64,000 nucleotides of DNA from positions 23,887 to 87,886 of the forward strand of contig JBIKPR010000003.1 in NCBI GenBank assembly GCA_044357345.1, given 5' to 3'. A model generated the notes under the pieces. The model did not search any database. It saw nothing but the letters and a program-made list of their open reading frames with translations, and had not been told where the DNA came from. This document shows, piece after piece, positions 13,718 through 29,990 of this stretch; within the stretch, counting starts at the first letter, position 1; each line of letters opens with the position of its first letter. The stretch comes from Bacteroidia bacterium (GTDB lineage Bacteria; Bacteroidota; Bacteroidia; NS11-12g; UBA955). A program made the translations under genes and the position numbers.

Positions 13718-15607
13718 ATGTGCGGTATCTCTGGAATATATAACCTTAACAACACCCCCGTTTCATTAGAAACATTAAAAAGATTCACCGACTCAATGGT
13801 GCATCGCGGTCCCGATGGGGCAGGTTATGAATTGTTTGACAATGAAACACTTGGTTTGGGTCAGCGTCGTTTGTCAATTCTAGATTTATCTGAAAATGGA
13901 AAGCAACCTATGTCATACGCTGAGGGGCGTTTTTGGATAACCTACAATGGGGAAATTTTTAATTTTATAGATGTAAGAGTTGAACTACAAGGATTGGGTC
14001 ATACCTTCAAATCAGACACAGATACAGAAGTAATTCTAGTTGCTTATGCAGAATGGGGTAAAGCTTGCTTAGATAAATTCAATGGCATGTGGGCTTTTGC
14101 TATATGGGATGAACAAGAAAAAACATTATTTCTAGCTCGAGACAGATTTGGGATAAAACCATTGTATTACACACACCAAGCAAATAACTTTTTTGCTTTT
14201 GCTTCCGAAACAAGAGCATTTAAGTTTTTAGATGGATTTAAAAGAGAATTCGATGACGAATTACTCAGACTAAATCAAAAAGATTCTTATGCACTTGAAG
14301 GTTTAGGATACACACCTTTCAAAGATATTCTGCAGATCTTGCCGGGGCATTATCTGTATGTTACCAAAGAAAATGAAACCATTGAACAAAAACGTTGGTG
14401 GCACATAGATGACCATTTGCACAAAGAAATACCTAAAACATTTGAAGCACAAGCTGAGAAGTTTTATGAATTGTTCAGAGATGCATGCCGAATCAGGTTG
14501 GTGAGTGATGTTCCTGTAGCTACAGCTTTAAGTGGAGGATTGGATTCTTCTTCGGTATACAGCGTCGTTTATGACATTCTTCAAACAGAAAGTTTAGGCA
14601 GAGTAAACAAAGATTCCCAAAGGGCCTTTTCTGCCATTTTTCCTGGCCTGCCTCAAAATGAAAAAGAATACGCAGATGCCGCGGCTAAATTTGTAGGAGG
14701 CAATATAAATTATATTGAAACTGATTTCTCGGATTTGGGTAAGCAAATAGAAATAGATACAGAATTGTGTGATTTTATTTCACCTTCGCCAATAACAGCA
14801 GTTTCTGCAGTTTATAAGGGAATGAGAGAGAATGGAATTACTGTATCAATGGATGGACATGGGGTAGATGAGATGTTGTATGGCTACCGTGATATGGTTT
14901 ATAATCTATTTAATAATAACCTATACAATAATTATCCCAAGCAAAGAGAAGAAATTAAAAAGGTTTTAGTTGAAACCTACCATCCTGATAATAGAAAAGC
15001 TTTAATGGATAGATTAGAAAAAAATATTCAACAAGAGTCTGGACTTTTATCGGCTAGTAAAAGATTTGTCAAAGGGGTAGCACGTAAAATGTTTAAACCG
15101 GAAACCGATTTAATGCTTGGCTATTTGCCTTTTAAAATGCCAAAACCATTAGGAGAACCCTATGATTTTAGCCATAAACCGTTTGAAGAGCGAATGGTTT
15201 ACCATGAGTTTTTTGAACATTGTTTGCCAGCATTATTAAGAAATTTTGATCGAGCATCCATGATGAACAGTGTTGAAATTCGTATGCCATTTATGGATTG
15301 GCGTTTGGTAACTTATGTATTCTCTTTGCCTACAAGTACTAAAATAGGTCTAGGTTTTACAAAATTGTTGCTAAGAGAAGCCATGAAAGACAAAATGGAT
15401 GAAACCGTAAGAACAAGAACATTCAAGGTTGGCATAGGAAGTCCAGTGGAATTTTGGTTTAATGGGGCATTAAAAGAGTGGGTACTTGACACTGTAAAAG
15501 AACAAAAACAAAAGGATGAACTAATTCTTGCTTATAAATCAGGTGGGGCAGATGCCAATTTAGTTCGAGATACTTGGTTGAATGTCAACATAAATTTAAT
15601 GAAATAA
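13718..15607 (+). CDS. asnB: Asparagine synthase (glutamine-hydrolysing) family amidotransferase
   Basis: 629 aa. It has the MCGISG Cys2 Ntn nucleophile and the PP-loop ALSGGLDSS. It is preceded by a 176-bp gap, the only sizeable gap in the first 18 kb. In a glycan locus the likely substrate is a uronate carboxyl (inference). Confidence 0.85.
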   Translation: MCGISGIYNLNNTPVSLETLKRFTDSMVHRGPDGAGYELFDNETLGLGQRRLSILDLSENGKQPMSYAEGRFWITYNGEIFNFIDVRVELQGLGHTFKSDTDTEVILVAYAEWGKACLDKFNGMWAFAIWDEQEKTLFLARDRFGIKPLYYTHQANNFFAFASETRAFKFLDGFKREFDDELLRLNQKDSYALEGLGYTPFKDILQILPGHYLYVTKENETIEQKRWWHIDDHLHKEIPKTFEAQAEKFYELFRDACRIRLVSDVPVATALSGGLDSSSVYSVVYDILQTESLGRVNKDSQRAFSAIFPGLPQNEKEYADAAAKFVGGNINYIETDFSDLGKQIEIDTELCDFISPSPITAVSAVYKGMRENGITVSMDGHGVDEMLYGYRDMVYNLFNNNLYNNYPKQREEIKKVLVETYHPDNRKALMDRLEKNIQQESGLLSASKRFVKGVARKMFKPETDLMLGYLPFKMPKPLGEPYDFSHKPFEERMVYHEFFEHCLPALLRNFDRASMMNSVEIRMPFMDWRLVTYVFSLPTSTKIGLGFTKLLLREAMKDKMDETVRTRTFKVGIGSPVEFWFNGALKEWVLDTVKEQKQKDELILAYKSGGADANLVRDTWLNVNINLMK

Positions 15608-15660: not shown

Positions 15661-17487
15661 ATGTGTGGAATCTTTGGCATTATAGCTCAAAAAAATGTAG
15701 ATAAGTATGATTTAAATCAATTAGCAATTCATTCACAAAATAGAGGAAAAGATTCGAGTGGATTAATATATTTGAAAAAACATCAATACCAGATAATTCG
15801 AGCGGATTATAGTATTGAAAAATTGATTAACATAGTCAAACCCTATGATTCGACCATTGTATTAGGCCATAGTAGACTTATAACAAATGGATTGTCAGAT
15901 AATCAACCTGTAATTAGAGATAATATTTTTGTTTTACACAATGGAATTATTGTAAATGAAGGTGAAATATGGGAAAACTTATCCGTTGAAAGAAAGTATA
16001 AGATAGATTCAGAAGTTATAAATGCTATTACAATTGAACATTTAAATCAAAATAAACCAATTGAGCAGCTGGCGGAAGTGATTCTAGAAAAATGCAAAGG
16101 GGTTGTATCTTGTGCATTAGTAATTCAGAGTCTAGGTAAGTTAATATTGTTTTCAAATAATGGCAGCTTATATACCGGTAGTAAAGGCAATGCCATTTAT
16201 TTTGCATCTGAAAAATATCCGCTAAATAAAGTAGGTTGCTATCAAGTTACCCAGATTAATGGGTCATTTCAAATGATTGACATACCTATACCAAATGATT
16301 TAAATTACAATTTGAAGGATATAATAGGTAGAAAAGAAAATCTAATACCTGAATTTATTTTTGACAAAACACAGGCATCTTTACTTGAATATAAAACACA
16401 TAAAATTAAAAGATGTACGAAGTGTATTTTGCCTGAAACAATGCCTTTTATAAGATTTGATGAGTTTGGGGTTTGCAATTATTGTCATAATTATAAACCA
16501 CGAAATAATCCAAAACCCAAAGAAGAGTTATTTAAATTGGTAGAGCCCTACAGGAAAAAAGAGGGATTGGAATGTATAGTTCCTTTTTCTGGTGGAAGAG
16601 ACAGTTGTTATGGATTGCTTTTAGTAGCAAAGGAATTAGGATTAAGAGCTGTAACCTATACTTATGATTGGGGAATGGTTACGGACTTAGGAAGGAGAAA
16701 CATCAGTAGAATGTGTGGCGAACTAGGGGTAGAAAATATCATTATAGCCGCTGATATTTCAAAAAAAAGAAAAAATATTCGAATGAATTTAGAAGCATGG
16801 CTAAAGGCGCCTCATCTAGGAATGATGGCAATTTTAACTGCTGGTGATAAGCATTTTTTCCAACATATTGACGATGTAAAGAAGCAAACTGGTGTTGAAT
16901 TAAATCTTTGGGGTTTTAATCCTATGGAGACCACTTTTTTTAAAACTGGCTTTTTGGGGATTAAACCAGATTTTGAGGAAGAAAGAACATATAGCACAGG
17001 AGCAATGAAACAGTGGCATTATCACTTAAAGCGTTTCCGCGTCATGATGGATAGTCCGGGTTATTTTAATTCGTCACTTTGGGACACTTTATCTGGGGAG
17101 TATTATAGAAGTATTGTAAAGAAATTAGACTATTACCACATATTCGATTATTGGCGTTGGGAAGAAGATGTTATCAATGCAACATTAGTAAATGATTATG
17201 GATGGGAATTAGCGCCAGATACTAACACAACATGGCGAATAGGAGATGGAACTGCTGCGTTTTATAATTATGTGTATTATACTGTTGCAGGTTTTTCAGA
17301 ACACGATACATTTAGAAGTAACCAAATTAGAGAGGGGCAAATTACAAGAGAGAGGGCTCTAGAGTTGGTGGAAGATGAAAACCAACCAAGGTATCAAAAT
17401 ATCCGATGGTATTTAGATACCTTAGGTATAGATTTTGAAAGCGTTATTAAAATTGTAAATGCCATACCAAAATTGTATGAAAAATAG
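15661..17487 (+). CDS. Fusion of a class-II (Ntn) glutamine amidotransferase domain with a WbuX-like N-acetyl-sugar amidotransferase (Zn-ribbon plus PP-loop)
   Basis: 608 aa. The N-terminus is MCGIFGII. From about nt 16400 come RCTKCILPETMPFIRFDEFGVCNYCHNY (CxxC...CxxC) and the PP-loop VPFSGGRDSCYG. Confidence 0.7.
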   Translation: MCGIFGIIAQKNVDKYDLNQLAIHSQNRGKDSSGLIYLKKHQYQIIRADYSIEKLINIVKPYDSTIVLGHSRLITNGLSDNQPVIRDNIFVLHNGIIVNEGEIWENLSVERKYKIDSEVINAITIEHLNQNKPIEQLAEVILEKCKGVVSCALVIQSLGKLILFSNNGSLYTGSKGNAIYFASEKYPLNKVGCYQVTQINGSFQMIDIPIPNDLNYNLKDIIGRKENLIPEFIFDKTQASLLEYKTHKIKRCTKCILPETMPFIRFDEFGVCNYCHNYKPRNNPKPKEELFKLVEPYRKKEGLECIVPFSGGRDSCYGLLLVAKELGLRAVTYTYDWGMVTDLGRRNISRMCGELGVENIIIAADISKKRKNIRMNLEAWLKAPHLGMMAILTAGDKHFFQHIDDVKKQTGVELNLWGFNPMETTFFKTGFLGIKPDFEEERTYSTGAMKQWHYHLKRFRVMMDSPGYFNSSLWDTLSGEYYRSIVKKLDYYHIFDYWRWEEDVINATLVNDYGWELAPDTNTTWRIGDGTAAFYNYVYYTVAGFSEHDTFRSNQIREGQITRERALELVEDENQPRYQNIRWYLDTLGIDFESVIKIVNAIPKLYEK

Positions 17488-17496
17488 CAGTGTAAC

Positions 17497-18726
17497 TTGG
17501 AAGTTATTAGTTTGAAAATTACAATTGTTACATATACTTTTCCTCCATCAAATGAAATAGGAGGAAGAAGATGGGCTAAATTAAGTCAGTATTTATCTAA
17601 ACTAGGTCACGATGTTGGAGTAATTTGTTCAGATTATGGAGTAGATAATAAATGGTATGATTCTGATTTCAAAGATATTGATATTAATACATTACCAAAA
17701 AATTACCCTGATTGGTTAAATGGAATTAATTTAACTTTTAAGCAAAAGTGTTTTTATCATTTAACAATTTTAGCAAGCAGATTATTTAGTAAAAATAACA
17801 TATTTGATAAAAGTATTGCTTGGGAAACCCCCTTGTTAGAAATCTTAGAAACAATATATAATAAGAAGGGGATTGATGTTCTTGTCATGACTGGTGGCCC
17901 TTTCTCTTTGTTGCATTATGGGACATTGTTTAAGGAAAAACACAAAGAGGTAAAGCTGGTATGTGATTTTAGGGACCAATGGACATGGGGTAGTCTTTAT
18001 GGAATGGAAAATTTGCCAACTCGTCAAAAAAGCTATCAAGAATTTCAGGAAACTAGGGTAATGGAATTTGCTGATATTATTAGTTACTCGACACAAAGCA
18101 TAGGTGATTATTTAATTAAAAAGTATCCACAATCCGCACAAAATTTATATTTATTACCACATGCTTTTGATCCTATTAAATTTTCAAAACTAGATGATAC
18201 TGCTGATAGGTCTGGTTTTATTTATGGAGGCACAATATATGATGGTTTAGAACCTATATTCAATAAATTATTAAAACTTTTAAATAAGGATAATTTTAAT
18301 AATTTCAAGTGGGATATTTATACCAATCATTCTTACCCTTTGCTCCAAATAGAAAAAGCAAAGAGCAAAATTAAATTACTTCCTTTCATTCCGGAAGAAG
18401 ATTTATTTGTTAAAATCAAAAATGCAAAAGCATATTTGGTTTTTTTCCCTGAAAGTGAAAAAGATATAATCTCTACCAAGTTTTGTGAAATTATCTATAC
18501 TCAGACTCCAATAATATATGTTGGCGAGGAGGGTGCAGTTTCGAAATTTATTAAGGAGAAAAAAGTTGGCATTCATATATTGCCGGAAAATATTGATAAC
18601 GAATTGCCATTATACATCAATGGGGACGTCCCTGTTGATTTTAGTTTTTTTGATATAAATCAATTTTCATTTCCTCTAGTTACAAAAGGGTTTTCAGATA
18701 AATTAGAAATAATAAATAGTCAATAG
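17497..18726 (+). CDS. GT-B (GT4-like) glycosyltransferase
   Basis: The N-terminus is KITIVTYTFPPSNEIGGRRWAKLSQYLSKLGHDV. The start is uncertain: TTG at 17497 or TTG at 17512. Confidence 0.55.
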   Translation: MEVISLKITIVTYTFPPSNEIGGRRWAKLSQYLSKLGHDVGVICSDYGVDNKWYDSDFKDIDINTLPKNYPDWLNGINLTFKQKCFYHLTILASRLFSKNNIFDKSIAWETPLLEILETIYNKKGIDVLVMTGGPFSLLHYGTLFKEKHKEVKLVCDFRDQWTWGSLYGMENLPTRQKSYQEFQETRVMEFADIISYSTQSIGDYLIKKYPQSAQNLYLLPHAFDPIKFSKLDDTADRSGFIYGGTIYDGLEPIFNKLLKLLNKDNFNNFKWDIYTNHSYPLLQIEKAKSKIKLLPFIPEEDLFVKIKNAKAYLVFFPESEKDIISTKFCEIIYTQTPIIYVGEEGAVSKFIKEKKVGIHILPENIDNELPLYINGDVPVDFSFFDINQFSFPLVTKGFSDKLEIINSQ

Positions 18727-19156
18727 TTTAATATTGATAACGCCTAATTTATAAATTATTGGCATTTATTTTTTACTTAAAACAATAAAATTAATTAAAC
18801 TAACAAAGAATAAAAAAGCAAATCTTTTGTGAATGTATATGTGCTATAAAGATTGAGCTTAAGTTGTCTTAAGCCACCAAAAGGAAATTAAAAAATATGG
18901 AGTACCAAAATCTTTAAAAGAAGTATAGGCAGTCTGTTGATTTTTAAGTTTAACGTTAGCTTCTCAGGGTGAGTGCTAGATTCCTTAAGATCTATTAAAA
19001 TGAATTCAATGGACTAGTAAGACAAAATAATCTAGGTATGAATTTTGAGTTGACAAATACGAATCTTTTTTATAAGCCATAAATTAACACACTAATCAAG
19101 ATAAGTAAAATTCTGTGAACTAATTTGTAATCTATGAGAAAAAATAAAATAACAAA

Positions 19157-19307
19157 ATGAAAATAGGAATATTAGGTTTAGGTTATGTTGGCATAGTAAA
19201 TGTAGCCTGCTTATCAAAACAAGGGTATACTGTTTATTGTACAGATGTAAAAAAACAAAAAGTTACTGCTGTTAAAGAAGGCAAAAGTCCAATTTTAGAA
19301 CCGCAAG
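19157..19307 (+). pseudogene. 5' relic (first 50 codons) of an AlgD-like nucleotide-sugar dehydrogenase gene
   Basis: By manual alignment these 151 nt match 24743..24893 with 4 mismatches. The reading frame then runs straight into IS sequence. Confidence 0.85.
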
Positions 19308-19427
19308 CAAAATTCTAATTTTAAAAGCAGGGAGGCTAGCCTGCCTGCTTTTAAAGAACCTTTAATATTGAAGAATTAAATGAGAAACATTATCTTTGAA
19401 TCCTGTACTAAAAAAGGGAGGGTTACA
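19308..19427 (+). mobile_element. Relic of the last 120 bp (right end with IRR) of the IS3-family element
   Basis: These 120 nt match 29790..29909 with 1 mismatch, which lies in the hairpin stem. The relic ends with the same GGTTACA terminus. Confidence 0.85.
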
Positions 19428-19543
19428 GAGTCGTATTCATAGAACAAAAACATAAAAATTATAATCACCCAAATTAAATGAGAAATTTTGCAAAAAAAAT
19501 TTGAGGTGGAATAAAATGGTTGGCAACATTATACAAAATATAA

Positions 19544-21166
19544 GTGAATAAAATAGTATTATCAATTAGGAAATGTCCTTACGAATGGCTTTCAGCTGTC
19601 TTGTTGTTTGTATATTTCTTTCCAGTCATATTTATGCCCAATAAAGCTTTGTTTTTAATCCATGACAATATGGATGGAACGATACCTTTATTGGTTTTTT
19701 TAGGTAATTCAGAGGCCTATTTTGCTTCAGGACAAACAATTGTAGATGGTGTGATGGGAGGAGTTCCAAGAGCTACTCTTCCATCTGCATGGAATTTTTT
19801 GAGTTTGAGTTTTTATATTTTTCCTCCATTATTTGCATATGTCTTTCACTATGCCATCCAACATCTTATCGCTTTTTTTGGGATGAGGACTTTTATTCAA
19901 TCATTTATTTCAAAAGATAAAAAAATACTGAACGGCGTTGCTCTCGCATTTGCTTTTTTACCATTTTTTCCTGGAGCAAGTATGACTGTTGCAGGATTGC
20001 CAATATTGGCATGGGCATTGGTTGGTATTTTTAAAAAACAAAATACAGTTTACCATTGGTTAATTGTAATTTTATTTCCATTTTTTAGCTCTCTTCCAAT
20101 TGGAAACATGTTTGGTTTTCCAACATTATTTTTACTTTCATTATTAGGTGTTTTTTACAATCATTGGAATTTAAGTTTTAGAATTTTTTTACCATTTATA
20201 GTTCTAAGCATCTTCACTATTGTTTCAGAATACCAACTTATTGAACTAATCCTCTCTGGATTTGAGTCCAATAGAGTTTCTGAGATAGCCAGTCAAAGCA
20301 AACTTAATTTCAAAGGTGTTATTGGAACAACTATACTAGGTTTTCTGTTCGGTCATTATCACTTTCATAGTTTACATATACTTGTATTTATTTCTGCATT
20401 CTTTTTAGGCATTTATCTTATTGTTAAAAGAAAATTGAATGATTTATTGTCAATATTAGTTGTGCCATTTTTGATATTGTTCTTTTGTTTTATGACTATA
20501 TACATTCCGTACAGCGGTATATTAGGAAATGTGCAAATCAATATTCGATTTTGGGCTATTTTTCCATTTCTATGGTATGGATTATTTGCTTTTGTCTTAA
20601 GAGTAATCAAAATTGGCCAAATAAGTAAATTATTAATCCTTTCTCAGGTATTATGGACAATGTTCTTGGTTTTTCCCAATGACTATTATGGATCAAAGGA
20701 TGCCGAAAATGTATTTGCTCAAACCTTTATTAAGTCTAGCCAAAATGAGTATTCAACGTTTGAAAACTATTATAAAATAGCCGATTTTACAAAGATTTCA
20801 CAAAACTTCCCTGAGATTAAAAAAAGCAATATTGTTTGTTTGGGTTTTGTGCCCGGTATTGCATTGTTCAATGGTTATAAAACTTACGATGCTTATCTCA
20901 ATATCTATCCATTGGAGAAATGGAAAAATTGGAAGACAATTAATAGTGAAGAATATAAACTTTCAAAGGAAATGGATTTCTTTTCTAATAAAGCTTTTTT
21001 ATTTTCAAATGAACTAGAAAATGGCAATAAAATTACAACTGCGCTAAAGTGGAATTTAATTGAATTAAGAAAAGCCAATGTAAAATATATTATTTCAACT
21101 TTAAATGAAATACCAGGGTTTGAAAAATCGGCCCAGTTAGGTTCATTATCGATATATAAATTATAA
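19544..21166 (+). CDS. Polytopic membrane protein with a C-terminal soluble domain (GT-C-like / candidate periplasmic glycan-modifying transferase)
   Basis: 540 aa with a GTG start. There are more than 10 hydrophobic segments over about 380 aa, then a hydrophilic tail. It lies immediately upstream of a GtrB-like GT2. Confidence 0.55.
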   Translation: MNKIVLSIRKCPYEWLSAVLLFVYFFPVIFMPNKALFLIHDNMDGTIPLLVFLGNSEAYFASGQTIVDGVMGGVPRATLPSAWNFLSLSFYIFPPLFAYVFHYAIQHLIAFFGMRTFIQSFISKDKKILNGVALAFAFLPFFPGASMTVAGLPILAWALVGIFKKQNTVYHWLIVILFPFFSSLPIGNMFGFPTLFLLSLLGVFYNHWNLSFRIFLPFIVLSIFTIVSEYQLIELILSGFESNRVSEIASQSKLNFKGVIGTTILGFLFGHYHFHSLHILVFISAFFLGIYLIVKRKLNDLLSILVVPFLILFFCFMTIYIPYSGILGNVQINIRFWAIFPFLWYGLFAFVLRVIKIGQISKLLILSQVLWTMFLVFPNDYYGSKDAENVFAQTFIKSSQNEYSTFENYYKIADFTKISQNFPEIKKSNIVCLGFVPGIALFNGYKTYDAYLNIYPLEKWKNWKTINSEEYKLSKEMDFFSNKAFLFSNELENGNKITTALKWNLIELRKANVKYIISTLNEIPGFEKSAQLGSLSIYKL

Positions 21167-21181
21167 AGAAATGTTATTAAA

Positions 21182-22099
21182 ATGAAAATTTCAATTGTAA
21201 GTCCAGTTTATAAAGCCGAGAACATTCTAGACGAGTTAGTCAAAAGAATAGTAACGGAAGTGTCGAGAATTACTGATGATTTTGAACTCATATTAGTTGA
21301 AGATGGTAGTCCCGACATCTCATGGGAGAAAATAGAAAAAAACTGCAATTTGGATAAAAGAATTAAAGGCATCAAATTATCAAGAAATTTTGGTCAGCAT
21401 CATGCAATTACTTGCGGATTAGACAATGCAGCTGGAGAGTGGGTAGTTGTAATGGATTGTGATTTACAAGATAGACCAGAGGAAATTATCAAATTATACC
21501 AAAAAGCATTAGAAGGTTTTGATATTGTTTTTGCAAGAAGGTTTAATAGAAAAGATAAATTCATTAAAAAATTAAGTTCAAAAATATTTTATAAAACTTT
21601 TTCATATTTGTCAGGTATAGACCAAGATGGTACAATTGCTAATTTTGGAATTTATTCAAAAAATATTGTTGAAAAAGTAATTCAATTGAGAGAGCCGATG
21701 AGAGCGTTTACTCCAATGGTTAAATGGATTGGTTTTAATTCAACTAACATCAATGTTGAACATGCAGAAAGATTGGAGGGTAAAACTTCTTATAATTGGA
21801 GTAAGCTAATCAATTTAGGGTTAGATATAGCTTTAGCATATAGTGATAAGCCATTAAAATTAACGGTAAAATTGGGATTTTTAATTTCTTTCTTTTCTTT
21901 CATTTTTGCAATAGTAAGTATTGTAAGATTTTATATTGGGAGTATAACTATTACAGGTTATACTAGCTTACTCGTTTCAATTTGGTTTTTATCAGGATTG
22001 CTTATCTTTATATTAGGTATAGTAGGCTTGTATATAAGTAAAATATTTGAAGCTGTAAAAGCTAGACCATTATATGTAATTGAAAATAAAACATTTTAA
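21182..22099 (+). CDS. GT2 polyprenyl-phosphate glycosyltransferase (GtrB/ArnC-like)
   Basis: 305 aa. Motifs are SIVSPVYKAEN, LVEDGSPD and MDCDLQD. Two C-terminal TM helices are present (LGFLISFFSFIFAIVSIV and LLVSIWFLSGLLIFILGIVGLYI). Confidence 0.8.
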   Translation: MKISIVSPVYKAENILDELVKRIVTEVSRITDDFELILVEDGSPDISWEKIEKNCNLDKRIKGIKLSRNFGQHHAITCGLDNAAGEWVVVMDCDLQDRPEEIIKLYQKALEGFDIVFARRFNRKDKFIKKLSSKIFYKTFSYLSGIDQDGTIANFGIYSKNIVEKVIQLREPMRAFTPMVKWIGFNSTNINVEHAERLEGKTSYNWSKLINLGLDIALAYSDKPLKLTVKLGFLISFFSFIFAIVSIVRFYIGSITITGYTSLLVSIWFLSGLLIFILGIVGLYISKIFEAVKARPLYVIENKTF

Positions 22100-22100
22100 A

Positions 22101-22889
22101 ATGAATATAAAAACAGATAATCTAAGTATTGGCAAAAATTCTTATATAGATCCTACAGCAAAAATTGTAGGTTTAAATGGAAATGCAAAAAATATTATCA
22201 TAGGAGATAATGTTTATATTGGTTCCAATGTTCAAATTATTTGTGATGATTTTAAGATAGGTGACTATAGTAAGATACAACACAATACTAATATTCACGG
22301 ATATTTGCCATGTAAAATAGGGCACAATGCTTGGATAGGACAGTTTTCTATTATTGATTGTATTGGTGGAACAACAATAGGTAATAATTGCGGTATAGGG
22401 GCACATTCACAAATTTGGAGTCATATTAAATTTGGAGATACTTTAGAAGGTTCTAGGTTTCTATCAGAAAAACCTGCAATAATTGGTAATGATGTTTGGT
22501 TTGTTGGACATTGTATTGTTTCGCCAATTATAGCAGAAGATAAGTCAATGGCAATGGCTGGTTCAGTAATTACTAAAAATATGAATTTTAATGAGATATA
22601 TGCTGGATCACCTGCTAAAAGTATATCTGATAAAGTTGGATATCAATTTGTAGATAATACTTTAGATTATAAATTTAAAAAAATGCAATCATACCTTAAT
22701 GATTTTGAAAGAAACATTGATAAACCACACAATATAAAAATCGTAAAAGACATAATTAACATAAATCAAAATGATGAATTTTCTTATTTTGATGTGTCTA
22801 CAAGAAAATATACTAAAAAGTTAACAACTGAAGAAGTTATGTTTATGAAGTTTTTATTACCAGCAAAAGCTAAATTTATACCTTTTTAA
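22101..22889 (+). CDS. Left-handed beta-helix (hexapeptide-repeat) sugar N-acyltransferase
   Basis: Hexapeptide-repeat runs are present (IIIGDNVYIGSNVQI, IGHNAWIGQFSII, IGNNCGIGAHSQI, IGNDVWFVGHCIV). I prefer the ATG at 22101, 1 nt after the upstream stop, over the TTG at 22080. Confidence 0.7.
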   Translation: MNIKTDNLSIGKNSYIDPTAKIVGLNGNAKNIIIGDNVYIGSNVQIICDDFKIGDYSKIQHNTNIHGYLPCKIGHNAWIGQFSIIDCIGGTTIGNNCGIGAHSQIWSHIKFGDTLEGSRFLSEKPAIIGNDVWFVGHCIVSPIIAEDKSMAMAGSVITKNMNFNEIYAGSPAKSISDKVGYQFVDNTLDYKFKKMQSYLNDFERNIDKPHNIKIVKDIININQNDEFSYFDVSTRKYTKKLTTEEVMFMKFLLPAKAKFIPF

Positions 22890-22890
22890 A

Positions 22891-24039
22891 ATGACTCCTT
22901 TCAACAAACCCTTTTTAACAGGCAAAGAAACAGCCTATATTACCGATGCGGTTGCATCCGGTAAAATATCTGGCAATGGCAAGTATACCCAATTATGCCA
23001 AAATTATTTTGAAAATAAGTATGGTTTTCGAAAGTGTTTACTCACAACTTCATGCACAGATGCCTTAGAAATGGCAGCCATACTATTAGATATTAAATCT
23101 GGAGATGAAGTTATTATGCCTTCATATACTTTTGTTAGTACTGCCAATGCTTTTGTACTGCGAGGTGCAAAGATTGTGTTTGCAGATTCAATGAAGATAA
23201 ATCCTAATATAGATGCGCAATCTCTAGAGTTATTAATAACAAGCAAAACCAAAGCCATTGTGCCTGTGCATTATGCCGGAATATCATGTGATATGGATGC
23301 CATTATGGACTTGGCTGCCAAGAACAATCTATTTGTGGTGGAAGACGCTGCACAAGCTATTGACAGTTATTATACGGGTAAAGATGGCATTCAAAAGCCA
23401 TTGGGAAGTATCGGCCATTTGGCGGCTTTCAGTTTCCATGAAACCAAAAATATTATTTCTGGCGAAGGGGGAATGTTGGTGGTAAATGATCCACAATTTG
23501 CCCAAAGAGCAGAAATTATATGGGAAAAAGGCACAAACCGCTCTGCATTTTTTAGAGGCGAAGTAGACAAATATGGTTGGGTAGATGTAGGTTCTTCTTT
23601 TTTACCATCGGAAATAATAGCCGCTTTTTTATGGGCACAATTGGAACACTTAGAAGAGATACAAAATAAACGCAAGTCCATTTGGAAACAGTATTGGGAA
23701 GGATTGCAAACCCTGCAAGAAAAGGGTGTTCTTAAACTTCCCTTAGTGCCCGATTATGCCGCAAACAATGCCCACATGTTTTATGTGGTTTGTCAAAATC
23801 TAGAACACAGGATAAACTTAATTGATGCATTGAAAAAAGAAGAAATCCATTCAGTTTTTCATTATTTAAGTTTGCATAAAAGTCCATTCTATCAAACCAA
23901 ACACGATAGGCGTATCTTGCCTAATTCAGATTTTTATTCAGATACTTTGTTAAGGTTGCCAATGTATTATGAGTTAGAAGAGAGTATAGTCGAGAGAATA
24001 GTTGAAATAATTATGGGAATTTATAATGATCAATTGTAA
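22891..24039 (+). CDS. wecE: dTDP-4-amino-4,6-dideoxyhexose transaminase (WecE/RffA type)
   Basis: 382 aa. It is near-colinear with E. coli WecE as I recall it. Shared segments are PFNKP, SCTDALEMAAILLDIKSGDEVIMPSYTFVSTANAFVLRGAKIVFAD, NLFVVEDAAQ, FSFHETKN, EKGTNRS.FFRG.VDKY.W.D.GSS and NAHMFY. Confidence 0.85.
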   Translation: MTPFNKPFLTGKETAYITDAVASGKISGNGKYTQLCQNYFENKYGFRKCLLTTSCTDALEMAAILLDIKSGDEVIMPSYTFVSTANAFVLRGAKIVFADSMKINPNIDAQSLELLITSKTKAIVPVHYAGISCDMDAIMDLAAKNNLFVVEDAAQAIDSYYTGKDGIQKPLGSIGHLAAFSFHETKNIISGEGGMLVVNDPQFAQRAEIIWEKGTNRSAFFRGEVDKYGWVDVGSSFLPSEIIAAFLWAQLEHLEEIQNKRKSIWKQYWEGLQTLQEKGVLKLPLVPDYAANNAHMFYVVCQNLEHRINLIDALKKEEIHSVFHYLSLHKSPFYQTKHDRRILPNSDFYSDTLLRLPMYYELEESIVERIVEIIMGIYNDQL

Positions 24040-24165
24040 AGAGGGTTAATAGGTTTGAGATCTGTATTTTTTATAGTATTTAGACATTATAAATCAAGAA
24101 ATTAAAGATAATGAAAACTGTAAAAAGTATCTTATACACCTTGAAAAACTAACTAATCACTCTGT

Positions 24166-24575
24166 GGACCTTATGGTTTTAGTGAAAAATCATTTAAAGA
24201 ATGCATAGTGCATAATGAATTTTTTGAAAATTGTTTTAAGAATTAAAAAGAAATTTTGATTGAGCATTCTTAATAAAAAGTGTTGAAATTCTAATTTCCT
24301 TCTTGGGATAGCGATTAGTAACCTTTGTTTTTTAGCTGTCTACAAGCGGTAAAATTGGACAAAGATTCACAAAGTTGCTCGTGAGTGAAGCTATGAAATG
24401 CAATGTGTATGAAACAGTAAGGACAAGAATATTTAAATTTGTAAAAAGAAGTCCTTTGAAATATTAGTTTAATAGTGAATTGAAGAAAGACCTATTAGAT
24501 AGCGTAAAAGACAGTTAATAGAAAGAAGAATTGTATAATGCAAATAAAACCTTTGGTTTAAGTCCAAAATAAGTA
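24166..24575 (+). pseudogene. Decayed 3' relic of an asparagine-synthase (asnB-like) gene
   Basis: The translation AFLIKSVEILISFLG*RLVTFVF*LSTSGKIGQRFTKLLVSEAMK..ETVRTRIFK...FNSELKKDLLDSVKDS**KEEL aligns with the C-terminus of 13718..15607 (ASMMNSVEIRMPFMDWRLVTYVFSLPTSTKIGLGFTKLLLREAMK..ETVRTRTFK...FNGALKEWVLDTVKEQKQKDEL). It carries several in-frame stops and at least one frameshift. Confidence 0.75.
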
Positions 24576-24742
24576 TTAAGATGCATGTTTCAGAATTAAT
24601 GTGCAAATAATACGGTAGATAGAAAAGTTGTTTGTTATTAGTTAAATCAAAAAATTTACCTCGGCAAATTGATTTGGAAATATAATAAATAGGTAAAGAA
24701 ATTTTTTTGTGCAATATTTGAGTAAAAAAATAAAGTAATATA

Positions 24743-26020
24743 ATGAAAATAGGAATATTAGGTTTAGGGTATGTTGGCATAGTAAATGTAGCTTGCTTAT
24801 CAAAACAAGGGTATACTGTTTATTGTACAGATGTAAAAAAACAAAAAGTTATTGCAGTTAAAGAAGGCAAAAGTCCAATTTTAGAACCGCAAGTAGAAGA
24901 ATTGATTCAATCTGGATTGGGGAAAGGACTGATTATTCCAACAGAAGACGTCAAAGAATTAATAGAACAATCAGATATTTTAATTACTTGCGTAGGAACA
25001 CCCAGCAAAATAAGCGGTGAAGTAAACTTAGATTATCTAACCAATGTAGTTATTGAAATCTGTTCATTTCTTAAAGAAGAGGATAAAAAATACCTTGTAT
25101 TTAGAAGTACAGTGCCACCAGGTACAACAGAAATGTTGATAGATAAATATATTTCTAAAAAGTTTCCCAATGTGCAAACTGTTTTTTATCCTGAATTTTT
25201 AAGAGAGGGTACTGCAGTAAAGGATTTTTTCAACTATGGAAGGTTTGTGCTTGGGGCAGAAAAAAGCAAAAACTATGATGAACTAATTGACATAATACAT
25301 TCAGATAAAACTGCGCCTGTTTTTATAACTGATTATAAAACTTCTGAGTATGCAAAATATATAGACAATGGATTCCATGCCCTAAAAGTTGTATGGGCAA
25401 ATGAAATCTTTGGCTTGGGCGCCGAATTGGGTGTTAATGTATATGACTCTCATCAAATATTTGTAGCTGACGATAAATTAAACATCTCTTCAAGGTATTT
25501 AAAACCTGGAACACCATTTGGAGGTTCATGTTTGCCAAAGGATGTAAGAGAATTACAACATTTAAAAACCAAATCAAACAGAAGTTTTAAACTTATTGAA
25601 AGCCTTATTCCAAGTAATGATTCATTTATTGCAGATATCATAGAAAAAATCAAAGCATTCGAAAAACTTAAATTAGGTTTTGTCGGTGTTACATTTAAAA
25701 ACCATTCGGATGATCTTAGAGAAAGTCCTATTTTGAGAATCTTATTGGCATTAAGACAGCAGGAAACTGAATATGAAATAGCGATATTTGATGAGGATAT
25801 TAATTCAGCCAATGTTAGGATTGAATTTCCTTTTTTGTATTCAGGAATAAAAAATTTAGAAGAAGTAATTTTAGAGTCAGAATTGTTGATTGTTTCCAAA
25901 AGATATTTAGAGCAAGTACTGGCTAATAAAAAATCCAATCAAATTATATTTAATTTATCTGATAATAAAACGGCCAGTAATAAAGACTTGATCTACAACC
26001 TATATTGTCCGAATGCATGA
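24743..26020 (+). CDS. Nucleotide-sugar 6-dehydrogenase, AlgD (GDP-mannose dehydrogenase)-like
   Basis: 425 aa. Segments that track P. aeruginosa AlgD as I recall it more closely than Ugd are MKIGILGLGYVGIVNVACLS, GKSPILEP, CVGTPSK, RSTVPPGT, YPEFLREGTAVKD and KLNISSRYLKPGTPFGGSCLPKDVREL. Confidence 0.8.
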   Translation: MKIGILGLGYVGIVNVACLSKQGYTVYCTDVKKQKVIAVKEGKSPILEPQVEELIQSGLGKGLIIPTEDVKELIEQSDILITCVGTPSKISGEVNLDYLTNVVIEICSFLKEEDKKYLVFRSTVPPGTTEMLIDKYISKKFPNVQTVFYPEFLREGTAVKDFFNYGRFVLGAEKSKNYDELIDIIHSDKTAPVFITDYKTSEYAKYIDNGFHALKVVWANEIFGLGAELGVNVYDSHQIFVADDKLNISSRYLKPGTPFGGSCLPKDVRELQHLKTKSNRSFKLIESLIPSNDSFIADIIEKIKAFEKLKLGFVGVTFKNHSDDLRESPILRILLALRQQETEYEIAIFDEDINSANVRIEFPFLYSGIKNLEEVILESELLIVSKRYLEQVLANKKSNQIIFNLSDNKTASNKDLIYNLYCPNA

Positions 26021-27186
26021 CTTTAATCTATGTTTATATAGGAGGAAGTAAAGCTTCAAGTGTTCAACAAAAAGTGGTGAACCAAGTCAAAGAGATGAAT
26101 GCGCATGGTATGAAAGCTATAGGTTGGTTTTTTACACAAGAAGTAGAGGTGGACACTTCTTTTGGAGAATATATAGTGTTAAAACCACTAAAAAATTATT
26201 CAAAAAAATACGAGTTTTTTCAAAAAAACTATGAGGAGCAGTTCCATTATAAACAAATTATAGAGGCGCTTAAGGATGCGAGCTTTGACATTCTGTTTAT
26301 TCGCCATGGTAGTCCAGGAACAGCCTATTTTAAGATGTTAAAACAATGGGCGAATAAAATATATTTATATATTCCTTCAAATTCTATTGCAGAGAACTTT
26401 CAAGAGAGAAAAGCAAACAAATCCAATTCAACTGCATCATGGATTATTGGTTGGTTTCAATACTTTTGGTTCATTTGGTTCATGCATTACAGATTGTTTT
26501 GGTTTGTATTACCTAAACTAAAAGGTGTGGTAGCATTTACACCTGAATTTGCCAAAATGCTTAAGCTTAAAAGCTTGAGTAAGGCAAAAACTATTTACAA
26601 CAGGGATGGCGCAGATTGTCCTAACGTTAAAGTAAGAACTTTTTTACCTATGAATCCTAAGGTTTATTCCTTTGTTTTTTTAAAAGGAAGTTCGATGCAA
26701 CAGCCATGGGCAGGTTTGGAGCGTTTGATTGCCAGTATCAAAGCAAGACCCGATATCCCTTGTCAATTATATATTACGGGAAAAGTATATAATCCTGAGG
26801 ATTTTCAAGAATCTTTTATTCAATTAACCGATCGTTTAGAAGATGATAAATTAGCAGAATTAATTAACGGTGTTGATGTTGGGGTAAGTAATTTGGCAAA
26901 TTACATGATTCAGTTTAATGAAACCACGAACCTTAAAAGCAGAGATTATTATGCGCGAGGACTTCCATTTATTCAAGCCAACACAATGCCAGATATTGAG
27001 GGAACAAAAGGAGCGGATTATTATTTGAACTTACCTAACAACAGTCAGTTAATCGATATGGATAAGGTAGTCTCATTTATTGAAAAAATGCGTAAAAATC
27101 ATAATCATCCAAATGAAATGAGAAATTATGCAGAAGAAAATTTGAGTTGGAATAAAACGGTTGGTGAATTGATAAAAAATATATAA
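26017..27186 (+). CDS. Hypothetical protein, possibly a glycosyltransferase, with a central hydrophobic segment
   Basis: The ATG at 26017 overlaps the upstream stop as ATGA. There is a Trp/Phe-rich hydrophobic stretch, WIIGWFQYFWFIWFMHYRLFWFVL. No diagnostic motif was recognised. Confidence 0.35.
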   Translation: MTLIYVYIGGSKASSVQQKVVNQVKEMNAHGMKAIGWFFTQEVEVDTSFGEYIVLKPLKNYSKKYEFFQKNYEEQFHYKQIIEALKDASFDILFIRHGSPGTAYFKMLKQWANKIYLYIPSNSIAENFQERKANKSNSTASWIIGWFQYFWFIWFMHYRLFWFVLPKLKGVVAFTPEFAKMLKLKSLSKAKTIYNRDGADCPNVKVRTFLPMNPKVYSFVFLKGSSMQQPWAGLERLIASIKARPDIPCQLYITGKVYNPEDFQESFIQLTDRLEDDKLAELINGVDVGVSNLANYMIQFNETTNLKSRDYYARGLPFIQANTMPDIEGTKGADYYLNLPNNSQLIDMDKVVSFIEKMRKNHNHPNEMRNYAEENLSWNKTVGELIKNI

Positions 27187-27188
27187 AT

Positions 27189-28610
27189 ATGATTAAAAAT
27201 AAAGTAAAAAAATTTATTGCGGTTTTTTTATCATTGTCTTCATTGATTGTATTCTTTATAATTTCATTTTTTAGATGGAAATATAATGATGATTATGTTT
27301 TCCCTAAAATGTTAGAAACTCAATCTTTGTTAAATTTTGCAATTGACCATTATATGAATTGGGATGCAAAATTTTTAATGCCATTTGGATTGTTTTGGTT
27401 TGGGATAGTTAAGTATTTAAATTTTGATATTCTAATGCCATTGGCTTCTATTTCTTTTATAGGCATTTCATTTTTAATTGTTAAGATTTTTGAGCAACAG
27501 ACAAATGTTAGTTTTTCAATAATTAATAAAATAATTTTAACGTCAATTGTAAATGGATGCTTGTTTTTACTTATGTATCATACTCATGGCGATTTGCTCT
27601 ATTGGATGTCAGGGAGTGTCTATATACATGGAGAAATGTTCTCCTTGCTTTGGGTCTATCTATTTTACAAAAAGATGTACTCAAAAACAATTTTCTTAGT
27701 TTTCACCTTTTTTGTTAGTACAATTCCACAAAACATCGCATTTGGCTTGTCTTTTTTAATTTTAATTGAAGCAGCAGCACAGCAAAGTAATGAGCTAAAA
27801 AAAAGATATTTATTAATTTTTTCTTTGTTTGTTATTGGAATCTCATTGTCAACTTTTTCACCAGGTTCGTTTAAGCAATTGGCATACATGCAATCAAGTA
27901 GTTATAATAATATCGCGGCAAACAATAATACTGTATTTGATTATATAATTCATTTTTTTAAAATATACATAGAAGCATTAACGCCAAACTATGTCTTATT
28001 TATATTATTAAGTTTGTTTTATATTTTGACTTCCTATATAGTAATAAACATGAGGGTTAAGAAGATTAATTTTATAATGGCTCCATATATTAATAAAAAA
28101 TTTGATAGTAAAAGTTTATTGAATACAGCATTAACTTACAAGTGGTTCTTGGCTTCATTTTTTTCTTTAACTATATATTGGCCTACAATGCTATATGGAA
28201 ATAGGTATTATTTGGGATTTTATATTTTCCTATTTATAGCTTTAGTATTATTTTTAAATAAGCATGTAGAAGCAGAAAAACGCATTAACAACCTTGGCTT
28301 TATTTTAATATTGGGTTTAATTGTCTTCTTTCTTGTAAGATATTCTATTACACTTAAAGAAAGTTTTTTAGTAAATAAATTTATGAAAGATAGAGAGCAA
28401 ATTTTAAGAGAAAACAGAGGTGCTGATGAATTAACCTTAGATGTATTAGATTTTAGTAGTTTTACAAGGTCAATTAGAACCTCAGAAATTTCACATGATT
28501 CTAATTATGTTACAAATTTAAATTATGCAAGTTTCTATAATATAAAAACCATTAAAGCTAGAAATGTTATTACTAAGAATCAATTATTAACATTTCAAAA
28601 TAAAAAATAA
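27189..28610 (+). CDS. Polytopic membrane protein (candidate polymerase or GT-C-like transferase)
   Basis: 473 aa with more than 10 hydrophobic segments. It is the last gene before the IS. Confidence 0.5.
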   Translation: MIKNKVKKFIAVFLSLSSLIVFFIISFFRWKYNDDYVFPKMLETQSLLNFAIDHYMNWDAKFLMPFGLFWFGIVKYLNFDILMPLASISFIGISFLIVKIFEQQTNVSFSIINKIILTSIVNGCLFLLMYHTHGDLLYWMSGSVYIHGEMFSLLWVYLFYKKMYSKTIFLVFTFFVSTIPQNIAFGLSFLILIEAAAQQSNELKKRYLLIFSLFVIGISLSTFSPGSFKQLAYMQSSSYNNIAANNNTVFDYIIHFFKIYIEALTPNYVLFILLSLFYILTSYIVINMRVKKINFIMAPYINKKFDSKSLLNTALTYKWFLASFFSLTIYWPTMLYGNRYYLGFYIFLFIALVLFLNKHVEAEKRINNLGFILILGLIVFFLVRYSITLKESFLVNKFMKDREQILRENRGADELTLDVLDFSSFTRSIRTSEISHDSNYVTNLNYASFYNIKTIKARNVITKNQLLTFQNKK

Positions 28611-28722
28611 GCATATTTTATAATTAGCTGTATAAATATACTAGCAGATCAGTTTGTAACCCTCCCCAAAAATAGTACAGTTTAAAAAGTTACAAAAAGT
28701 AATTAATTTTAAACCGACTAAT

Positions 28723-28989
28723 ATGAGAAAATCAAAATTTACAGAAGTACAAATTTTAAAAGCACTAAAAGAGTATGAAACAGGCAGGTCAGCAGAAGAC
28801 ATAAGCCGAGACTTGGGTATTCAAAAAGTTACTTTTTATAGGTGGAAACAAGAGTATTCAGGGATGAATTCTACCCAAATGTCAGAATTAAAAGCACTAA
28901 GAGAAGAAAACCAAAAGTTAAAGACCATGTATGCCGATATGGCCTTAGACAATAAGGTTCTTAAGGATGTGTTGTCAAAAAAGTTCTGA
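28723..28989 (+). CDS. IS3-family transposase OrfA (HTH)
   Basis: 88 aa. It has MRKSKFTEVQILKALKEYETGRSAEDISRDLGIQKVTFYRWKQEY followed by a leucine-zipper-like tail. Confidence 0.9.
   Translation: MRKSKFTEVQILKALKEYETGRSAEDISRDLGIQKVTFYRWKQEYSGMNSTQMSELKALREENQKLKTMYADMALDNKVLKDVLSKKF
28977..28983 (+). other. Programmed -1 ribosomal frameshift heptamer A AAA AAG
   Basis: The heptamer is in the correct X XXY YYZ phase of orfA (tcA AAA AAG ttc tga). The -1 frame continues KVLKPCDRRERVDYIVSEY... into orfB. Confidence 0.7.
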
Positions 28990-29808
28990 AGCCTTGTGAC
29001 CGCAGGGAACGGGTTGATTATATTGTATCTGAATACAATTTTAGTCTGTCCAAGGCTTGCAAATTAATGAACCTATCCCGAACAGTGTACAAATATAAAT
29101 CGAAGAGAGATGATAGCCAGGTAGAAGACAGGGTACTTTCTTTGGCGTTAAAGAGGCCAACGGATGGCCAAGATATGATTTACTATAGAATAAGAAACGA
29201 AGGGGTAAAATGGAATTACAAACGCGTTAGAAGAATTTATATGAAGTTGAATTTAAACAAGAAAACTAAAACACGAAAAAGAATACCTGCTAGAGTAAAG
29301 GAGCCATTATTCTGCCCAGAAGAGCCAAACTATGGGTGGTCAATGGACTTCATGCACGATGCTCTGAGCAATGGCAGAAAATTTAGGACTTTGAATGTAA
29401 TTGATGATTACAATAGAGAAGTTCTTGCAATAGGAGCTCACTTAAGTATAGGCTAAAAATTGGTGACTGATGTATTAAACGATATTGAAATTGAAAGAGG
29501 AAAACCAAAAATTATTAGGGTTGATAATGGCCCGGAATTTATATCAAGTATATTAGGGGATTGGTGCTACAAGAGAGATATTAAATTGCAATTTATACAA
29601 CCCGGAAAGCCTACTCAAAATGGCTACGTAGAAAGATTTAACAGAACTTTTAGAAGAGAAATATTAGATGCATACATATTCGATAGCTTGGATCAGGTCA
29701 GATTACTGACTGAAGAATGGATACAAGAATACAACAACGACAGACCTCATGAATCATTGGGAGGAATACCTCCAGCGCTATACAGCAAGCAAAATTCTAA
29801 TTTTAAAA

Positions 29809-29834
29809 GCAGGGAGGCTAGCCTCCCTGCTTTT
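29809..29834 (+). terminator. GC-rich hairpin plus T-run inside the IS right end
   Basis: GCAGGGAGGC-TA-GCCTCCCTGC forms a perfect 10-bp stem, followed by TTTT. It lies within the 3' end of orfB. The relic copy at 19327..19352 has one stem mismatch. Confidence 0.35.
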
Positions 29835-29990
29835 AAAGAACCTTTAATATTGAAGAATTAAATGAGAAACATTATCTTTGAATCCTGTACTAAAAAAGGG
29901 AGGGTTACAGTATCGTTAGTTTAAATTTTGAGCTGATTATTGAATTATTTGGCGAATAATTCCTGTTCAAAAATAGTTTTGAGAACATTA

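Follow-up and report, generated by a model that had tools for sequence, protein, structure and literature searches.

Genes for O-antigen and capsule synthesis lie in loci in which IS remnants and truncated gene relics occur. In homology-facilitated illegitimate recombination, which is known from studies of natural transformation, a homologous anchor on one side of the event is combined with a microhomology of 3–10 bp on the other. Large deletions beside an IS3-family element have been described for IS629 with the IS-excision enhancer (IEE); for these IS629-adjacent deletions, the proposed mechanism starts with a break at the IS end, after which the resected DNA anneals at a microhomology (PMC9943667).

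The locus described here lies in a window of 64,000 nucleotides, the whole stretch of Bacteroidia DNA that was analysed. At 19126–19551, three fragments follow one another in the order A′ 5′ end, IS 3′ end and B′ 3′ end, where A′ is a copy of a nucleotide-sugar dehydrogenase gene (A) and B′ a diverged paralogue of gene B. With moderate confidence, we interpret this segment as a non-functional three-part recombination scar within a surface-polysaccharide gene cluster. Its third piece, the B′ tail, is absent from an earlier sequence-only reading of the same DNA. Like the IS629 deletions, the scar retains one short shared copy of 5 bp at its join, involves an IS3-family element and appears to mark a loss of kilobases. 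Unlike them, it has an endpoint within the IS, 120 nt from the right end, and not at the IS terminus. A search of this genome for the Prim-Pol domain (PF09250), our proxy for an IEE-like protein, had no match, and replication slippage is an equally good mechanism for the scar as an IS629-type break and resection. The resemblance to O-antigen and capsule loci lies in low GC, the presence of near-identical as well as diverged homologues, an IS, and relics of A′, B′ and asnB. The scar is also similar to homology-facilitated illegitimate events in that a 97% identical A′ block with ~80% identical flanks ends in a microhomology join, with A as the candidate donor. This pattern is not peculiar to such events, as mosaic alleles or ordinary gene conversion yield the same.

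The first piece of the scar, at 19157–19307 on the plus strand, corresponds to the start of the dehydrogenase gene, namely its first 151 nt with 50 codons and the GxGxxG end of the Rossmann fold. Its parent or paralogue, the intact gene A, is located at 24743–26020 (plus strand) and matched TIGR03026 (E 1e-89) and PF03721, with three UDPG_MGDP_dh domains. A base-by-base count over 24743–24893 bore out the four mismatches in 151 nt that had been claimed for this pair (97.4% identity). They are at 19183, 19207, 19266 and 19270; three are synonymous and one is a Thr/Ile difference. At the protein level, the identity was 94% over 52 aa (tblastn). Only codons 1–50 are present, and A′ thus lacks the full dehydrogenase domain set (NAD-binding, central and UDP-binding; ~420 aa). 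Directly upstream, a 31-nt leader (19126–19156, plus strand) aligned with 24710–24742 with six mismatches and a 2-nt gap. At ~80% identity, this leader is more diverged than the coding part of A′ (Fisher p 0.002), and the 5′ end of A shows no unusual conservation across species, with 74% identity to the orthologue in genome G021. When the window was compared with itself by BLASTN, both homologies named in the sequence-only reading were recovered: 19126–19307 matched 24710–24893 at 93.5% over 184 columns (E 5e-74), and 19300–19434 matched 29782–29916 at 97% over 135 (E 2e-59). By translation, the join creates a chimeric 53-codon ORF at 19157–19318 (plus strand), in which the 50 A′ codons are followed by AKF and a stop codon from the IS; public gene calls assign PF03721 to it.

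Upstream of the intact A there is a further relic (24127–24557, plus strand), the 3′ part of an asnB-like gene, detected by BLASTN and tblastn against the AsnB gene at 13718–15607. It comprises the C-terminal third (aa 467–610, 46–53% aa identity) and lies between the DegT gene and A.

The second piece (19308–19427, plus strand) is the last 120 nt of an IS3-family element and contains the orfB end, a hairpin and the right inverted repeat ending in ...GGGAGGGTTACA. The full element, of 1255 bp, lies at 28655–29909 (plus strand) and is the only full-length copy in the assembly, which consists of 134 contigs and 2.68 Mb. Its ends, TGTAACCCTCCC...GGGAGGGTTACA at 28655 and 29909, are inverted repeats of the TG..CA type, and the copies in G010 and G021 have the same ends. 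With the termini of the element placed in this way, the relic stops exactly at the IS terminus. The stub was previously described as identical to 29790–29909 except for one mismatch, and we found the same (1/120, 99.2% identity), with the mismatch at 19343 in the stem of the hairpin.

We assign the element to the IS3 family by its domains, its coverage of the NF033516 profile, its TG..CA inverted repeats and an A6G site. orfA (28723–28989) carries HTH_Tnp_1 (Pfam, E 1e-19), and orfB carries rve and rve_3 (Pfam, E 1e-29). The slippery site AAAAAAG at 28977–28983 is just 5′ of the orfA stop codon and orfB is open in the −1 frame, which predicts a frameshift. NF033516 (transpos_IS3) is covered by three ORF pieces at profile positions 2–81, 112–250 and 259–368; as the gene is split, none of the pieces reaches the whole-protein cut-off of 160 bits. 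An in-frame TAA at 29457–29459 divides orfB into pieces of 129 and 133 codons. The G010 copy, 90% identical to the IS in the window, has Ser at the position of this TAA, yet is itself full of stops. Beyond the window, a solo left end of a related IS (contig C52, 39697–39813; 117 nt, 86% identical) contains the first 11 orfA codons followed by unrelated DNA and is a second internally truncated IS relic. With one nonsense-bearing copy and two stubs, the IS3-family element appears to be on the way to being lost from this lineage. The flanks of the full copy, AGTT to the left and GTAT to the right (28647–28654 and 29910–29917), are unlike, and there is thus no target-site duplication. The G010 copy has GTGA on either side, and the relic in the window retains the right flank only (GAGT), so that these flanks do not tell for or against IS–IS recombination. 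The lack of a duplication around the full copy hints that it was also rearranged, or that its flanks have mutated.

At the join between the first two pieces, the sequences are TAGAACCGCAAGCAAAATTC in the relic, TAGAACCGCAAGTAGAAGAA in gene A and CTATACAGCAAGCAAAATTC in the IS. GCAAG is common to all three, as had been reported for the two parents; in these it is at 24889–24893 and 29785–29789, and one copy is kept in the product (19303–19307, plus strand). The three homologies of the scar and this microhomology are observed directly. In a simulation of 200,000 random gene–IS joins between gene A and this IS, an overlap of at least 5 bases occurred in 0.98%, and a GCAAG microhomology is therefore unlikely to be there by chance. 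Lying 151 nt into the gene and 120 nt from the right end of the IS, the breakpoint corresponds neither to a transposon end nor to a site-specific recombinase core. That the junction arose by illegitimate recombination at a microhomology, as first proposed from the letters of the window, is supported by the single GCAAG in the product and its low chance frequency.

The third piece (19428–19551, plus strand) is a relic of the last ~115 nt of a diverged gene B paralogue. Positions 19429–19542 are 81% identical to 27069–27183, the final 115 nt of gene B (21 differences in 115), and the homology starts within 1–2 nt of the IS terminus. There is an in-frame TAA in place of a GAA codon in B and a 1-nt deletion in an A run, which identify the B′ tail as a pseudogene fragment. 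Both the exact IS terminus and these lesions are seen directly. The clean join between IS terminus and B′ is what a true transposition insertion is expected to leave, the IS part ending at its inverted-repeat terminus and B homology resuming within 1–2 nt, and from it we infer that the IS transposed into B′. The intact gene B (26005–27186, plus strand; 393 aa) is without a match in Pfam or NCBIfam. Of 125 family genomes, 55 have homologues, usually in glycan loci beside asnB or dehydrogenase genes, and gene B probably represents an unmodelled glycosyltransferase-like family. It is followed by gene C (27189–28610, plus strand), which encodes a DUF6056 membrane protein.

Past the scar, the first intact gene (19544–21166, plus strand) encodes a DUF6044 membrane protein (PF19510, E 4e-77). 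The B′ stop codon at 19549–19551 overlaps its GTG start at 19544. Public gene calls start at 19634 or 19670, giving proteins of 510 or 498 aa, and relatives are 538–554 aa long. Given the length of the relatives, and since nucleotide homology to the closest DUF6044 relative (70% aa identity) extends from 19571, the GTG at 19544 that overlaps the B′ stop is more likely to be the original start. We tried and rejected the idea that DUF6044 and gene C (DUF6056) are paralogues that would extend a duplicated unit, as BLASTP aligned the two only along a hydrophobic stretch, at 23% identity and E 0.006.

The hairpin of the stub, at 19320–19355, has a predicted stability of −21.6 kcal/mol compared with −25.9 in the full IS, and contains the one stem mismatch. 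It scored as terminator-like in a consensus scan. Since it is kept and terminator-like, the hairpin may insulate the DUF6044 operon from transcription coming from upstream. Promoter-like hexamers were found at 19436–19465 and 19488–19517, no commoner than in shuffled sequence; the sigma-70 scan gave 7 promoter-like sites versus 6.0 ± 2.4 in shuffled sequence, with a consensus that may not suit this organism.

Relatives in the searched collections are at the species level only, and this organism is represented by one lineage. In G065, G064, G021 and G087, an A orthologue (55–61% aa identity) is directly upstream of the closest B orthologues (43–50% aa). G021 and G064 share the order asnB-A-B, which matches the asnB 3′ relic at 24127–24557 upstream of A in the window. 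An intact B-like gene is immediately upstream of DUF6044 in a Chitinophaga MAG, in the 70% DUF6044 relative and in G001, a member of the same genus, and overlaps the DUF6044 start in G001 and in the 70% relative. These A-B pairs and B-like-DUF6044 arrangements support an ancestral order A′-B′-DUF6044 at the site of the relic. In G001, the AsnB-like and WbuX-like proteins are encoded by a single ORF of 1025 codons (L024; G001:C6, 8015–11092, minus strand), followed by the B-like gene, DUF6044, a 190-aa ORF and a HAD gene; in the window, the AsnB-like and WbuX-like genes are separate (13718–15607 and 15661–17487). An undeleted A′-B′ or an IS::B′ intermediate was not found by DNA search of 41 relatives, and a search with the gene B protein in 125 family genomes returned no genome that keeps the undeleted A′-B′ arrangement. 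The DUF6044 protein had a 42% match in the Chitinophaga MAG as its sole match among genome contigs and none among metagenome contigs, and a degenerate pattern for the B/B′ tail had 0 matches in metagenome contigs. A homologue search with gene context and exact look-ups of the GT4 and A proteins retrieved only the same near-clonal lineage or distant species.

The most likely explanation is that the lost unit was an A′-B′ pair with an IS copy within B′, from which ~3.3 kb was deleted. The ancestor would have carried a second resident A′-B′ pair directly upstream of the DUF6044 gene and translationally coupled to it, and an IS3-family copy would have transposed into B′ ~115 nt before the B′ stop codon. 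A single illegitimate join at GCAAG would then have connected nt 151 of A′ to nt 1136 of the IS copy, either through slippage during replication or through a break, for example at the left end of the IS, that was resected and then end-joined. This step would have removed ~3310 bp in total, comprising the remainder of A′, almost the whole of B′ and 1135 nt of IS sequence. What was left would have decayed slightly, the B′ tail acquiring its stop codon and frameshift and the stem of the IS hairpin its one mismatch. The module asnB-relic-A-B-C-IS, which is intact 5 kb downstream, would cover the functions of A′ and B′. The order of these events, the size of the deletion and its occurrence in cis, as opposed to a join in trans, are what we infer from the scar.

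The identities of the pieces do not fit a simple old A′-B′ pair. The A′ coding part is 97% identical to its counterpart, compared with ~80% for the leader and 81% for the B′ tail (p 0.002 and 2e-5). This gap between A′ and B′ could be due to gene conversion or to alleles of mosaic structure, in which the dehydrogenase is conserved and the glycosyltransferase variable; alternatively, it is possible that a homology-facilitated illegitimate event took place with A as donor.

A different origin was considered, in which a full second A-B-C-IS copy, as at 24743–29909, was present at 19157 and lost 4.9 kb between two GCAAG motifs, so that B′ would be DNA of the landing site. We consider this unlikely. 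The A′ and IS stub identities (97.4% and 99.2%) do not differ significantly (p 0.39), as a single recent duplication predicts, and on the right the homology ends precisely at the IS terminus. However, the unit would have to have landed by coincidence inside a homologue of its own gene B. No mechanism accounts for a left border ~31 nt upstream of A, where no IS end or inverted-repeat-like sequence is present, and divergence is far greater in the leader than in the coding part. The IS of the intact unit is downstream of C and not in B, so the relic is no simple deletion derivative of such a unit, save for a coincidental landing. The pieces also differ in age, as indicated by 97% identity for A′ and 99% for the IS stub versus 81% for the B′ tail (Fisher p 2e-5 and 2e-6), and a single duplicated unit does not explain this. 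Of the second gene-X-IS unit proposed in the sequence-only reading, the second dehydrogenase 5′ end and the second IS copy are retained, but a copy of the unit as such is not, because the IS stub abuts the B′ tail. The ~3.9 kb given there for the deletion does not follow either: its own model yields 4896 bp, and insertion of the IS in B′, which we prefer, ~3.3 kb.

Improbable in our view, too, is a join in trans followed by Campbell-type integration, in which a circle closed at GCAAG would have entered the 5′ end of A. Such a circle would have been excised from a related chromosome and would have contained the IS end, the B′ tail, DUF6044, GT2, acyltransferase and DegT genes, the asnB relic and the 5′ end of A. 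Its entry into a recipient with the order GT4-A-B-C-IS would have produced a truncated first A and a complete second one. When 19308–24893 is left out, a single uninterrupted A frame does follow directly after the GT4 gene, and the A′/A and IS identities of 97% and 99% would be allelic strain differences, with the unlike leaders explained as well. Nevertheless, this course of events requires two rare events and a donor already near the present arrangement, and no empty-site or circle-junction sequence was found among the assembled sequences. Moreover, G001 and the Chitinophaga MAG place B-like-DUF6044 between asnB and the HAD gene, a synteny that makes DUF6044 look resident and not imported. 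The whole locus has 27–37% GC, and base composition gives no distinction between resident and imported DNA. A tandem duplication of the block from the IS end to nt 1–151 of A was rejected as a candidate, the DNA upstream of 19126 and that upstream of 24710 being without similarity.

It is quite doubtful that A′ and the IS stub, beyond being the passive trace of a deletion, form one border of a mobile glycan cassette. As direct repeats, the IS stub (99%) and the full IS bracket 10.5 kb of glycan genes (19428–29909), and A′ and A bracket 5.6 kb. If there were such a cassette, either repeat pair could loop the block out or in by homologous recombination, which would amount to Campbell-type swapping of surface-sugar modules. 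The kept IS end could supply a terminator and an outward promoter that now drives the DUF6044 operon. Most likely, the scar is inert today.

Three other public assemblies have the 53-aa junction ORF without any change: it is on a 17.6-kb contig (GCA_041447075.1 / JGI 3300059473), which shares the gene order of the window down to the split orfB, on a 1.2-kb contig (JGI 3300042381) and on an 821-bp MEGAHIT contig (ENA ERZ27272081). Two of the contigs were compared as DNA and were 100% identical to the window across the join, over 18163–19403 and 18920–19740. The same junction is thus observed directly in independent assemblies, all of which come from the same near-clonal lineage. An assembly artefact, a chimeric or collapsed contig that merges reads of the dehydrogenase gene and the IS, could be imagined in a genome fragmented into 134 contigs with a relic that involves repeated sequence, but we dismiss it as extremely improbable, since the junction ORF was recovered by other pipelines with a 100% match in the two contigs compared as DNA, private substitutions that a collapse would not yield separate the relic from both parents, and an assembly-graph join cannot arise from a 5-base overlap.

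The scar is genuine but ordinary, a microhomology scar of a kind that is routine for glycan loci. As a microhomology join of 5 bp that has an IS-internal endpoint on one side, it is a clean natural case but opens no new question; it is of use chiefly for annotation and for reconstructing the past of the glycan locus. The 53-codon ORF that public pipelines label as a dehydrogenase-family gene is a fragment. For the organism, the preferred reading, deletion from an A′-B′ pair with the IS in B′, would mean that the glycan cluster formerly had two A-B modules and at least two copies of the IS3-family element, and that the DUF6044 operon has lost the gene to which it was translationally coupled.
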